From assembly GCF_011455495.1 (NCBI RefSeq), contig NZ_CP015029.1, positions 712,740-744,739 of the forward strand: a stretch of DNA of 32,000 nucleotides. The letters run 5' to 3'. Shown one piece after another: positions 10,899-13,754 of this stretch. The stretch is from Frederiksenia canicola. Lineage in GTDB: Bacteria; Pseudomonadota; Gammaproteobacteria; Enterobacterales; Pasteurellaceae. The first letter of the stretch is position 1. Every line of letters starts with the position of its first letter. The notes beneath the pieces were generated by a model that saw only the letters and a program-made list of their open reading frames with translations, did not search any database and had not been told where the DNA came from. A program made the translations under genes and the position numbers.

Positions 10899-12143
10899 AT
10901 GTCTATGAAAATGAAAAAAAACCAACGTATTTCCATCATTGGCTTAGGTTATATCGGTTTGCCTACGGCAGCGGTGTTTGCCCAAAGTGGTTGCCGCGTG
11001 ATTGGCGTGGACAGCAATCCACAGGTGGTGGAAACCCTAAACCAAGGCAAAATTCACATTCACGAGCCACAGTTGGCAGAGGCGGTGCAACAAGCGGTCA
11101 GTTCTGGGCGATTTTTTGCAACGCTCACCCCCCAACCTGCGGACGCCTTTATCATCGCCGTGCCTACGCCGTTCCAAGCGGATCATCAGCCCGATTTGAG
11201 TTATATCCAAGCGGCGATTGAAAGCCTTGCTCCAGTGTTGAATAACGGTAATTTGATTGTGTTGGAATCAACCTCTCCTGTTGGCACGACGGAAAAACTT
11301 GCCGAATGGCTAACGGCATTACGCCCCGATCTCACCGATCAACTCTTTTTTGCTTACTGCCCAGAACGTGTGCTACCCGGCAACATTATGCAAGAAATCT
11401 ACCACAACGACCGCATTATCGGCGGGCTAACTCCCGAGAGCAGCGAACAAGCGGTCAGTTTGTATCAGCTTTTTACCAAAGGCGAATGTTTGACCACCGA
11501 CAGCCGCACCGCTGAAATGTGTAAACTCACTGAAAATGCCTTCCGTGATGTGAATATCGCCTTTGCTAACGAATTGTCGATGATTTGCGACCGCCACCAA
11601 ATCAATGTGTGGGAGCTGATCGCCCTTGCTAACCGCCACCCGCGTGTCAATATTTTGCAAGCGGGAGCTGGCGTGGGCGGGCATTGCATAGCCGTTGATC
11701 CGTGGTTTATCGTTTCGCTCGATCCAGAACAGAGCCGCTTAATCCAAACCGCTCGCCATATCAATGACCACAAACCGCAATGGCTGCGAGATAAAATCAA
11801 ACTCGCCGTTGCCGATTGTGCCGCCGCCACCGACCGAAAACCGAGCGACATCACCATCGCCTGTTTTGGCTTAGCTTTCAAAGCGGATGTGGACGATCTT
11901 CGTCACAGTCCCGCCTTGCAAATCACCGAACAACTCGCCGATTGGCACCACGGCACCTTACTGGCTGTTGAACCCTACATTACCACCTTGCCTGAGAGCC
12001 TAAACGGCAAAGCCACGCTCACCGACTTCCACACCGCGTTAGCCCAAGCAGATATTGCCGTACTGCTGGTTGATCATCATCTGTTTAAAACCGCCCAACC
12101 CACACAGCGTTGGATTGTCGATGCAAAAGGAATCTGGCAATGA
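10899..12143 (+). CDS. wecC: UDP-N-acetyl-D-mannosamine dehydrogenase
   Basis: 414 aa. It contains IGLGYIGLPTAAVFA (Rossmann fold), AVPTPF, TAEMCKLTENAFRDVNIAFANE and GGHCI. The choice among three clustered ATGs (10899, 10905, 10911) is uncertain. Confidence 0.95.
   Translation: MSMKMKKNQRISIIGLGYIGLPTAAVFAQSGCRVIGVDSNPQVVETLNQGKIHIHEPQLAEAVQQAVSSGRFFATLTPQPADAFIIAVPTPFQADHQPDLSYIQAAIESLAPVLNNGNLIVLESTSPVGTTEKLAEWLTALRPDLTDQLFFAYCPERVLPGNIMQEIYHNDRIIGGLTPESSEQAVSLYQLFTKGECLTTDSRTAEMCKLTENAFRDVNIAFANELSMICDRHQINVWELIALANRHPRVNILQAGAGVGGHCIAVDPWFIVSLDPEQSRLIQTARHINDHKPQWLRDKIKLAVADCAAATDRKPSDITIACFGLAFKADVDDLRHSPALQITEQLADWHHGTLLAVEPYITTLPESLNGKATLTDFHTALAQADIAVLLVDHHLFKTAQPTQRWIVDAKGIWQ
11090..11099 (+). 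repeat. Apl-type USS core ACAAGCGGTC, with TTTTGCAAC after 14 nt (11114-11122)
   Basis: Exact 10-mer inside wecC. Confidence 0.85.
11447..11456 (+). repeat. Apl-type USS core ACAAGCGGTC
   Basis: Exact 10-mer inside wecC. Confidence 0.85.
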
Positions 12144-12967
12144 AAATCGAACGAAATCAATGGGAAAGTGAATTTTTTGGGAGAGAGATTGGTTCGTTGA
12201 TTTTTGAGCTAGAGGATCACATTCTGCCCCCGCTTGCGGGGGAAGTACCCTGCGAAGCAGGGAGTAGGGGGGAACAAGCGGTCAGTTTTTGCCAAAATTT
12301 TACAAATTTCCCCCCTTCGGTTTCGCTTTGTTCAACCACTTCCCCGGCAAGCGGGGGCAGAATAGAAGGTATCTCGTTGCTCCAAGCCAAAACCCCCACC
12401 ACCGATCTCAACACAATCCACTGGTTGCAACAACACGGTTTTCAACTGGTGGAAACGGAAATCACCTTTGTACTTGAATTTGCAAAATTTCCCGAGAAAC
12501 TGACCGCTTGCGAATGCCGAATTGCCGAAAAAACGGATGTCGCCGCCCTAAAAAAACTCGTTGGCTCCGCTTTTCCTCACACTCGCTTCCGTCCACCCTA
12601 TTTCAGCCAAGCAGAAAACCAACGTTTCTATGCAAAATGGATCGAAAATGCGGTGAAAGGTGAGTTTGATGATCTTTGCTTGATCGCCGAACAAGACGGC
12701 AAACTGCAAGGCACAATCAGTCTAAGATTCAACGGCAAAACCGCCAAAATTGGCTTACTTGCCGTTGCTTCCGAATTTCAACGCCAAGGCATCGCGAAGC
12801 GATTACTTTCCGCCGCCATATCACACGCCAAACACCATAATGCCGAAAATTTGCACATCACCACTCAACTGAGTAACATAGCCGCCATCTCGCTCTATCA
12901 ATCTATTGGAGCGACAATTTCTGAGACGAATTATTGGTTTTATCAATTTTTTTGTAAATATTTGTAA
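12140..12967 (+). CDS. wecD: dTDP-fucosamine acetyltransferase (WecD/RffC) carrying an in-frame insertion of about 47 aa
   Basis: I placed the start at the ATG at 12140, which overlaps the wecC stop (ATGA). The track ORF start at 12110 would overlap wecC. The N-terminal NQWESEFFG and the C-terminal FRPPYF...FYAKWIENAVKGEFD...IGLLAV...QRQGIA...YW are collinear with E. coli WecD. Confidence 0.85.
   Translation: MKIERNQWESEFFGREIGSLIFELEDHILPPLAGEVPCEAGSRGEQAVSFCQNFTNFPPSVSLCSTTSPASGGRIEGISLLQAKTPTTDLNTIHWLQQHGFQLVETEITFVLEFAKFPEKLTACECRIAEKTDVAALKKLVGSAFPHTRFRPPYFSQAENQRFYAKWIENAVKGEFDDLCLIAEQDGKLQGTISLRFNGKTAKIGLLAVASEFQRQGIAKRLLSAAISHAKHHNAENLHITTQLSNIAAISLYQSIGATISETNYWFYQFFCKYL
12221..12363 (+). 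mobile_element. MITE-like nested palindromic element carrying a USS, in-frame within wecD
   Basis: The 26-bp terminal inverted repeats (12221-12246 vs 12338-12363) are 25/26 complementary. An inner G6 (12267-12272) / C6 (12310-12315) stem encloses ACAAGCGGTC (12274-12283). A local hairpin lies at 12248-12262. Confidence 0.6.
12274..12283 (+). repeat. Apl-type USS core ACAAGCGGTC
   Basis: Exact 10-mer at the centre of the palindromic element. Confidence 0.85.
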
Positions 12968-13076: not shown

Positions 13077-13754
13077 ATGATTGCTGGAGATCATATCTAT
13101 TCCCCGAGAACGGGTTACACTCACCACGGTATTTATATCGGTAATCAACAAGTGATTCACTATTCTGGTTTTGCAAATGGAATGAATAGTGGTGAAATTT
13201 GCATTGCAGCAGTAGATGAATTTAGTAATGGAAATCCAGTGCATGTTTTGGAAAGGCCTTTCCGAGTTTTTAGCCATACTGAAACCGTAGAGCGAGCTTA
13301 TCAGCGATTAGGTGAAGACTGGTATAACGTATTACTGAATAATTGTGAACATTTTGTAAACTGGTGTATTAATGGTAAACATGAAAGTTCACAAGTGAAT
13401 GATTTAGTGGATTCTTTGCAGAAAGTAAATGATGCGGTTTCTTATTCTAAATCTCTCAGTTCACCTTCGCTCGACAGCGGGAGAATAGCAACAACAGTAC
13501 CAACTTCATCACTTCCTTTATCGTTAGGTGGGGGAGTAACCGCAATCTCTGGTTTAGCGGGAATTGCATCGACTGTGGTTGCTACGAAAATGGTTGAAGA
13601 AGTGCTTTCGGATGATAGTGAAGTTAAGCAAACGTTTGTGGATGCAGTGGATTCAACGACTGAATTTATCGGTGAAACCGTTGAGGAAGTCGGAGAAGTG
13701 ATTGATTCTGTTGTAACTGGAGCAATTGACTTTATCGGCAGTATTTTTGATTAG
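13077..13754 (+). CDS. LRAT/PLAAT-family (permuted NlpC/P60) Cys-His acyltransferase/phospholipase-like protein with a hydrophobic segment and an acidic C-terminal tail
   Basis: Strong SD AAGGAG (13065-13070), 6 nt before the ATG. The motifs GDHIY..YTHHGIYIG..VIHY and NNCEHFVNWC (His16, His28, Cys90) match the LRAT/H-RAS-like-suppressor signature. Confidence 0.8.
   Translation: MIAGDHIYSPRTGYTHHGIYIGNQQVIHYSGFANGMNSGEICIAAVDEFSNGNPVHVLERPFRVFSHTETVERAYQRLGEDWYNVLLNNCEHFVNWCINGKHESSQVNDLVDSLQKVNDAVSYSKSLSSPSLDSGRIATTVPTSSLPLSLGGGVTAISGLAGIASTVVATKMVEEVLSDDSEVKQTFVDAVDSTTEFIGETVEEVGEVIDSVVTGAIDFIGSIFD

Follow-up and report, generated by a model that had tools for sequence, protein, structure and literature searches.

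By architecture, the named family closest to the element described here is BoxC of Escherichia coli, a 56-bp repeat with about 32 copies and unknown function (PMC2267715, Table 3 and supplementary file 69). Palindromic insertions that are read in frame, including the Rickettsia palindromic elements (RPE), are those of Claverie and Ogata 2003, as cited in PMC2267715. VsrA of Caulobacter, a DUF559 protein, is Vsr-like and required for the DNA-damage response upon deletion of a cytosine methylase (PMC12907096). Here, we analyse a stretch of 32,000 nucleotides from Frederiksenia canicola (contig NZ_CP015029.1; 'the window' throughout), in which a palindromic block of 143 bp (positions 12221-12363) lies inside wecD, the gene for dTDP-4-amino-4,6-dideoxy-D-galactose acyltransferase. 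A sequence-only reading of this DNA had taken the block for a miniature element inserted in frame, with a DNA-uptake signal as its cargo. Our analysis leads to a more specific explanation, namely that the block is probably a gene-less miniature relative of a hairpin-repeat element that brackets DUF559 genes, inserted once in an ancestor of the Frederiksenia clade and translated within WecD.

The block as a whole (12221-12363, assigned to neither strand) is made of two inverted units of roughly 50 nucleotides around an A+T-rich centre of 37 nucleotides. Its terminal arms, 12221-12246 and 12338-12363, were returned by an inverted-repeat search as 26 nucleotides with 25 complementary positions (96%), and when the arm was searched in the 32-kb window with up to three mismatches these were the only two sites, with matches in none of 100 shuffles. 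The arm search, a pattern detector for units and a covariance model (R1, both introduced below) all indicate a single copy of the element in the window. Taken as a single strand, a 156-nt stretch over the block folds at -81.6 kcal/mol (z = -7.7), better than all 200 shuffles.

Unit A (12222-12271, plus strand) consists of a first hairpin, an AAGT linker, a second hairpin and then GTAGGGGG. The first hairpin, which is the outer arm (12224-12245, plus strand), is the inverted repeat CTGCCCCCGC-TT-GCGGGGGAAG and holds a 20-mer, TGCCCCCGCTTGCGGGGGAA, that is multi-copy in many lineages, while the second (12248-12262, plus strand) is CCCTGC-GAA-GCAGGG with a GNA triloop. The following G-run (12266-12274, plus strand) looks like a reversed 3' arm of the first hairpin and pairs with the C-run at 12308-12316 to form an inner stem; the G6/C6 stem at 12267-12272 / 12310-12315 was extended by the inverted-repeat search to 9 nt with 100% pairing (12266-12274 / 12308-12316). 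The uptake-signal core ACAAGCGGTC comes next (12274-12283, plus strand), followed by T and A tracts up to 12309. Unit B is inverted (12310-12362, minus strand) and repeats the plan with a first hairpin, AAGT, a second hairpin GGTTGAACAAAGCGAAACC and then GAAGGGGGG. Its first hairpin (12339-12360, minus strand) differs from the left arm at a single position (CCGGGG for CGGGGG), and its second (12319-12337, minus strand) is a GGTT..AACC stem with an internal GA/AG mismatch motif, whose GAGC-GNA-GCGA motif also occurs in units that flank DUF559 genes. Before the G-run, unit A has GTAG, whereas GAAG, GATG or AAAG stands there in unit B and in most of the other lineages. The arms, both inner hairpins, the G6/C6 stem, the uptake-signal core and the stop-free read-through that had been noted from the sequence alone are all where they were placed, and above chance.

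The connection to DUF559, whose product is a Vsr-like PD-(D/E)xK nuclease, rests on the arrangement of such units around the gene. In two Maricaulis species (L039 and L020), a 490-bp stretch is bounded by inward-facing units with the identical first hairpin and has a DUF559 gene inside; unit B of the window matches one of these units with 90.6% identity over 53 nt. A DUF559 gene of a Dehalococcoidia genome (L106) likewise has two units flanking it. We then counted units with the pattern detector, which in the 32-kb window picks up the two true arms and nothing else, around 84 DUF559 loci from a metagenome sample that encode relatives of the seed proteins, so that the association covers one subfamily plus E. 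coli ycjD. A co-oriented unit lies within 200 nt upstream of the gene in 63 of 78 loci, an inverted unit within 200 nt downstream in 60 of 77, and inward-facing units stand on both sides in 50 of 72. The first 100 nt beside the gene hold 67 co-oriented units upstream and 68 inverted units downstream, compared to 0-5 units per 100-nt bin beyond 300 nt, and the loci together hold 337 units compared to 30 in a shuffled control. The resulting cassette has a median length of 466 bp and a median end-to-end identity of its terminal repeats of 19/22; in many loci, a second G-run lies 5-8 nt before the DUF559 start codon, at the position of a ribosome-binding site.

Covariance model R1 was built solely from 34 DUF559-flanking units, and it matches the window twice at full length, at 12222-12271(+) (model positions 1-53, E = 4e-4) and at 12310-12362(-) (E = 1.4e-4), with nothing else at E <= 1 in 52 kb comprising the window and the E. 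coli ycjD locus (L213). As around DUF559, the units of the window form an inward-facing inverted pair with their first hairpins outermost. Because both arms are matched at full length, the block reads as the ends of a DUF559 cassette without the gene, and no gene lies in the 37 nt between its units. By analogy with REP/RAYT, the miniature may derive from, or be moved by, the gene-bearing cassette. In the literature that mentions DUF559 or ycjD, we found no link of DUF559 to flanking repeats. One DUF559 cassette (L214-L217) sits between acyl-CoA dehydrogenase and thiolase genes, with its annotated open reading frame (ORF) ending one base before the thiolase start, so cassettes, like the wecD block, can lodge inside operons.

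The units form a large family. A scan with the arm core over one genome per species returned at least 120 loci, and the copy numbers that follow are lower bounds. Full-length relatives of the block (110-150 bp, 70-88% identical) occur at at least eight loci in the Pasteurellaceae metagenome-assembled genome (MAG) S17M_Sa_43, and at least one in Ursidibacter arcticus, which bears out the proposal that the block is a copy of a repeated miniature palindromic element. The MAG has at least eight unit pairs plus single units, and two of its loci (L036 and L008) carry identical elements in different flanks, which indicates that the pair was duplicated as one piece. In H. paracuniculus and Moraxella cuniculi, units are paired the opposite way, with their 5' ends facing, and the unit of about 50 nt is therefore the basic module. 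Across about 28 sites examined, only the wecD site and one unit at the C-terminal end of wecE (L122) are within genes; the others were taken as intergenic, including copies in L058 and L119 at the 5' end of a long open frame, which we took as upstream sequence.

Among the matches listed, the 20-mer is multi-copy in at least ten distant lineages. These include Reyranella, Rhodobiaceae, Maricaulis, several alphaproteobacterial MAGs, one gammaproteobacterial MAG, Dialister, Fimbriimonadaceae, Dehalococcoidia, Gemmatimonadota, Mesoaciditoga and some viral contigs; in five IMG/VR contigs classed as viral (L124-L128), the 20-mer is followed by the same downstream architecture. The search imposed the 20-mer and not the sequence downstream of it, where a G5 run occurs within 80 nt in 147 of 157 units (again among the matches listed). 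The second hairpin takes 96 distinct sequences across taxa, with mostly GNA triloops as loops, and 82% of them fold better than 95% of their shuffles; that so many different stems occupy one position argues that the structure is under constraint. A MAFFT alignment of 66 units was structurally incoherent in this hairpin, and we used per-sequence folding against shuffles rather than column-wise pair counts.

In all lineages, second hairpins very often have GNA triloops closed by G-C and C-G (GCGAAGC, GCGTAGC, GCAAAGC), as at 12250-12260 and 12322-12334 of the window. The GCGAAGC-type GNA triloop is a motif of exceptionally stable DNA mini-hairpins, a hint that the units may act as single-stranded DNA. 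As for the trailing purine run, it is similar to a reversed 3' arm of the first hairpin (GGGGGAAG ... GAAGGGGG); when reversed and direct copies were compared, G-rich 8-mers matched both ways within one mismatch. One may speculate that the purine run forms a triple helix on the first hairpin or, equally speculatively, that the C-rich arm and the G-run act as a pair of anti-ribosome-binding site and ribosome-binding site. In Dialister (L027, L043, L051, L086, L090 and L035), the unit is followed by a third hairpin, by a closing ..GCAGAAT that can pair with the 5' ATTCTGC, and then by a conserved extension of about 50 nt (CATATGAYACTGAAAGTAAATCCCGTAACG), making a longer composite repeat.

The gene that hosts the block is wecD (12140-12967, plus strand), an ORF for 275 aa that includes a 47-residue insert. 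It follows directly on wecC (10899-12143, plus strand; UDP-N-acetyl-D-mannosamine dehydrogenase family, an ORF with UDPG_MGDP_dh Pfam families on the orthologous genes), and its start lies inside the wecC stop in an ATGA overlap. The product is 100% identical to F. canicola protein P0001, scores 242 bits against NCBIfam NF008212 (cutoff 219) and has the E. coli TDP-fucosamine acetyltransferase WecD (2FS5/2FT0) as its best solved structure (E = 4e-31), in agreement with the earlier naming of the gene. Within wecD, the block follows codon 27. In four of the four genomes compared (the window and three relatives), the wecC stop and the wecD ATG (12140 in the window) overlap, and an orthologue alignment shows W8, F12 and F13, upstream of the block, as invariant WecD positions; because this conserved start and these residues precede it, the block lies inside the gene, an insertion within coding sequence and not an N-terminal extension, as had been argued before. 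The spacing from FFG to the (S/L)xQAK anchor is 64 residues compared to about 21 in E. coli WecD, in line with the earlier estimate of some 40 extra amino acids. The plus-strand frame runs ...LEDH-ILPPLAGEVPCEAGSRGEQAVSFCQNFTNFPPSVSLCSTTSPASGGR-IEGISLL... without a stop across the block, and the opposite strand carries a 65-aa mirror ORF (12217-12414, minus strand) with the mirror peptides that had been noticed, a by-product of the palindrome and not a gene; in total, two of the three forward frames and one of the three reverse frames are open.

That the segment could instead be native to WecD, or that functional WecD could start downstream of it, we consider hardly credible. The annotation of Pasteurellaceae bacterium Orientalotternb1, which begins a 195-aa protein right after the block, would fit such a start, but the segment is missing from 34 of 37 aligned WecD orthologues, among them those of Ursidibacter, H. 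paracuniculus, Mannheimia and the enterobacterial type, and where present it is conserved as a palindrome and not as a peptide. Further, the 27 residues upstream of the block contain the invariant positions, begin at the conserved overlapping start and are modelled by AlphaFold2 as strand-helix-strand with a predicted local distance difference test (pLDDT) score of 92-94.

In the same model, the enzyme core has a pLDDT above 90, whereas residues from about 24 to 78 reach only 37-66 and have no secondary structure, between strands at 17-21 and 80-86. The extra residues, for which the sequence-only reading had asked whether they form a surface loop, are thus predicted to make up a disordered loop, about 47 residues long, within a linker that differs in length from one orthologue to another, and WecD would be expected to stay active. 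The middle of the insert peptide is unrelated between the two orientations of the element (the window and the metagenome scaffold L122, described below), from which it follows that the site tolerates arbitrary sequence. A protein search with element-encoded peptides in both orientations returned only the short ORFs P0041 and P0042 and missed P0001 and P0003, so its sensitivity was poor; taken with that limit, the result suggests that in-frame copies are rare. P0041, a 75-aa ORF on an 862-nt contig in ENA, is 96% identical to the element-encoded peptide and is probably a further sample of the wecD insertion, or another copy.

The length of 143 nt is not a multiple of three, and the sequence-only reading had warned that the inserted length must differ from the inverted-repeat limits. 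A simple solution would be a net gain of 141 nt (47 codons), with one terminal AT, or one A and one T, belonging to the target; the presumed ancestral sequence, ...GAT CAC ATA GAA GGT..., gives the same gain. Two routes would lead there: a core of 139 nt plus a duplicated AT, or an element of 141 nt (12222-12362) placed between A and T. Frederiksenia-type copies have AT at both ends, which is self-complementary and hence ambiguous between direct and inverted. Copies of other lineages carry TT/AA or GA/TC as the two bases just outside TCTGCC...GGCAGA, pairs that are complementary and not direct, which argues against a true target duplication and in favour of an extended inverted repeat.

Two other genomes have the element at the same codon position. 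In Orientalotternb1 (L121), it has the same orientation but CCCC instead of CCCCC in the left arm, and this 1-nt deletion breaks the frame, so that wecD is annotated as 74 aa + 195 aa; the frameshift may be real or a homopolymer sequencing error. In scaffold L122, whose WecD is 65% identical, the whole element is inverted and still in frame, and its insert peptide is the translation of the minus-strand ORF 12217-12414 of the window. As the three genomes share the site although WecD is only 65% identical, the insertion is probably ancient and common to them rather than recent, judging from these comparisons. The alternative, that the three copies are independent and fairly recent insertions of one subfamily into a preferred target, has some points in its favour: compared with the reverse complement of L122, the element of the window is 91.7% identical, far above the flanking wecD (73-75%) and wecC (71.5%); two orientations are what it would predict; and the family has been active in this operon, where a single unit at the wecE/wecF junction of L122 (11405-11455) lengthens wecE to 418 aa, up from about 380, and has no counterpart in the window, L121 or L123, a presence/absence difference within the operon. 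Yet the three genomes agree in the position to the codon, the window and L122 copies have A+T-rich centres that are closer to each other than either is to those of the MAG copies, and hitting the same dinucleotide two or three times, stop-free each time, would be unparsimonious, while the high conservation can also be explained by hairpin constraint or by gene conversion from other copies. We thus regard independent insertion as unlikely, and take as the simplest history an old insertion, made once, and a later inversion between the two arms of the element.

How the units might move is a separate matter, and several observations weigh against the explanation we favour. No DUF559 homologue was found in 219 kb of Pasteurellaceae and Moraxella sequence around units, and none of the top 120 homologues of the Maricaulis DUF559 protein comes from Pasteurellaceae. 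Among the matches listed, DUF559 is present in only 3 of 120 loci picked by the 20-mer, most units being orphans, and the association as counted covers one DUF559 subfamily and E. coli ycjD. The ends of 50 DUF559 cassettes show no consistent target duplication, no pair of filled and empty sites was found, and DUF559 protein P0120 was seen in one genomic context only. For the wecD copy itself, none of the orthologues compared offers an empty site near enough to fix the insertion boundaries, and a homopolymer sequencing error may lie behind the frameshift in L121.

Some of these points would fit with units that are REP/REPIN-like and moved by another enzyme, such as a RAYT-type Y1 transposase, or spread by recombination, with DUF559 targeting or homing into pre-existing pairs. 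Orphan units vastly outnumber those linked to DUF559, target duplications are not seen at cassette ends, units are paired 5'-to-5' in H. paracuniculus and 3'-to-3' in Frederiksenia, a mixture also known from mosaic REP clusters, unit A has GTAG before its G-run, and Vsr-like folds include a homing endonuclease (PMC3424549). Against this, all-against-all clustering of the ORFs within 1.2 kb of 150 units left DUF559 as the sole recurrent gene, in a comparison that included no search aimed at Y1 transposases, and the second G-run at the ribosome-binding-site position before DUF559 suggests co-evolved parts rather than chance adjacency. Cross-phylum ORF clusters near units that consist of ABC ATPases and thiolases were discarded as chance groupings. 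On balance, movement by a different enzyme seems to us rather less plausible than a DUF559-related origin, although it deserves to be kept in mind as a minority view.

Could the block instead have been co-opted in the enterobacterial-common-antigen operon, either as a hairpin for mRNA processing or attenuation or as an on/off switch of wecD that works through the C-run or through inversion? The very stable predicted hairpin, a nucleotide conservation above that of the coding flanks, the splitting of the gene in one relative by a 1-nt change of its C5 run and the existence of an inverted version would all suit such a role. A search of the block for terminator- or promoter-like sites found none, however, and Rfam gave no family for the element (window at gathering thresholds, region at E <= 10 and 18 related loci), the only hit, to mir-1188 (E = 2.9), being due to chance. 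Moreover, the frame is kept in both orientations, so inversion is no switch, a run of five Cs is short for slipped-strand switching, and intergenic copies elsewhere are conserved to an equal degree. Co-option is thus quite improbable.

In the explanation of a miniature DUF559-related element, the building block is a unit of about 50 nt made of a pyrimidine/purine hairpin, a variable second hairpin, usually with a GNA triloop, and a purine run, and two inward-facing units with their 5' ends outermost make an element. The Frederiksenia block has the ends of a DUF559 cassette, with a 37-nt centre that bears the uptake signal in place of the gene. An ancestor of the Frederiksenia clade would have received one copy in wecD, at a linker of variable length in the N-terminal domain, where it could survive because its net gain was 141 nt and it was stop-free in frame. 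Later, the copy would have flipped in place in one lineage, for which recombination between its two arms, or template switching from one to the other, would be the simplest route, and in another lineage the loss of one C of the C5 run would have broken the frame.

The uptake signal in the centre is part of a genome-wide signal and not unique to the block, as the 9-mer occurs 16 times in the 32 kb of the window compared to 0.29 expected. The copy at 12274 precedes TTTTT and AAAATTTT tracts. Across Pasteurellaceae-type units, an exact ACAAGCGGT lies within 22 nt after the G-run, in constant orientation, in 10 of 48, of which seven or eight are independent, over a background of 0.35 per kb; other copies have degenerate uptake signals at the same position, and many copies, including all those outside Pasteurellaceae and Moraxella, have none. 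From its fixed position, its recurrence and its degenerate versions, the uptake signal is therefore an inherited feature of a Pasteurellaceae subfamily. The idea of an uptake signal as cargo is upheld insofar as the signal is recurrent and position-specific there, but falls short in that it is a lineage-specific addition and not the cargo that defines the element. At this fixed position, it makes the Pasteurellaceae units a simple test case for whether repeats can hitch-hike on natural transformation. Moraxella cuniculi (L104, 7690-7830) has a unit pair of the H. paracuniculus type beside a perfect uptake signal of the Pasteurellaceae type. Judging by their names, paracuniculus and cuniculi, both hosts may be rabbit-associated, which would fit horizontal transfer. 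Pam-1, a known 155-bp uptake-signal-containing repeat of Pasteurella multocida, was considered and is unrelated, with paired uptake signals and no such hairpins.

Elsewhere in the window, an ORF of 225 aa with an LRAT (NlpC/P60-like) domain lies at 13077-13754, between wecD and wecE. The two genes adjoin in Orientalotternb1 and are separated by other small ORFs in L122 and L123, so this spot in the operon takes up foreign genes. Further downstream, 18198-23824 holds three tRNA genes and then a complete rRNA operon (16S, a tRNA, 23S and 5S).

The wecD block is a clear case outside Rickettsia of a palindromic repeat fixed inside an enzyme. The element was kept across speciation, flipped without loss of frame and is read as two unrelated peptides in sister lineages, and the linker of WecD accepts sequence freely. 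Kinship with Correia, ERIC or RPE, which the sequence-only reading had brought to mind, is not supported, as the arms match the hairpin units that bracket DUF559 and the architecture resembles BoxC. With RPE, the block shares a palindrome of about 100-150 bp that interrupts a housekeeping enzyme without loss of frame, can be read through in both orientations and is predicted to form a surface loop, but the families are probably unrelated, and in-frame insertion is the exception in the family of the window. With Correia (NEMIS) and ERIC/IRU elements, it shares a length of 100-160 bp, terminal inverted repeats (here 26 nt, 25/26), the potential for a long hairpin and a multi-copy nature. Its terminal sequences are different, however, and its ends are themselves self-folding hairpins. 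The TA duplication of Correia elements was not seen, the flanking AT being ambiguous, and unlike ERIC the block has no blastn similarity to E. coli genomes, which do hold ERIC copies.

REP/REPIN sequences with their RAYT (Y1 transposase) genes also have features in common with the family. Like them, the family has short G+C-rich hairpin units that occur singly or in inverted pairs, with many orphan copies, a few that bracket a single nuclease-type gene in inverted orientation and no obvious target duplication. The bracketed gene, by contrast, is a PD-(D/E)xK, Vsr-like DUF559 and not an HUH Y1 transposase, and its units are built of two hairpins and a reversed purine tract. While a REP sequence is usually confined to one species, an identical 20-mer of this unit recurs in different phyla. 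Should nuclease and units prove to be functionally coupled, they would constitute a second nuclease-plus-hairpin-repeat system beside REP/RAYT.

BoxC differs from the units of the window in several ways. Sequence similarity is not detectable: the block has no blastn match in 5,426 E. coli genomes, nor in plasmids or phages, and R1 misses the BoxC repeat CCTCGCCCCTCTGGGGAGAGGGTTAGGGTGAGG that lies downstream of the E. coli DUF559 gene ycjD. The units of the window have an extra second hairpin, form an inward-facing pair that behaves as one 143-bp element and carry an uptake signal, and the window copy lies inside a gene. Yet the plan is the same, with a pyrimidine/purine hairpin, a short linker and a purine run that resembles the 3' arm reversed, as in the BoxC example CCCCTCGCCCC-TCT-GGGGAGAGGG-TTA-GGGTGAGGGG, and both families are multi-copy, mostly intergenic and of unknown function. 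Bridging forms also exist, which have the exact hairpin of the window, no second hairpin and a BoxC-type GGTTAGG linker. At the ycjD locus of E. coli K-12 (L213, 11301-11360), a duplicate of about 50 nt of the ycjD 3' end stands between ycjD and the BoxC repeat and looks like the remnant of a second DUF559 cassette.

By analogy with REP/RAYT, we tentatively propose, as a possibility that we rate somewhat below even, that BoxC-like units and DUF559 genes make up a widespread cross-phylum repeat system, in which the bracketed DUF559 copies would be the autonomous or maintaining form and orphan units, including BoxC and the wecD block, their non-autonomous offspring. If so, BoxC and DUF559 would be explained jointly and the wecD block would be a footprint of the system in a protein. 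The unit itself connects E. coli BoxC, the large DUF559 family of small Vsr-like nucleases and the very similar hairpin units of ten or more distant lineages, which have previously been treated separately or not at all.

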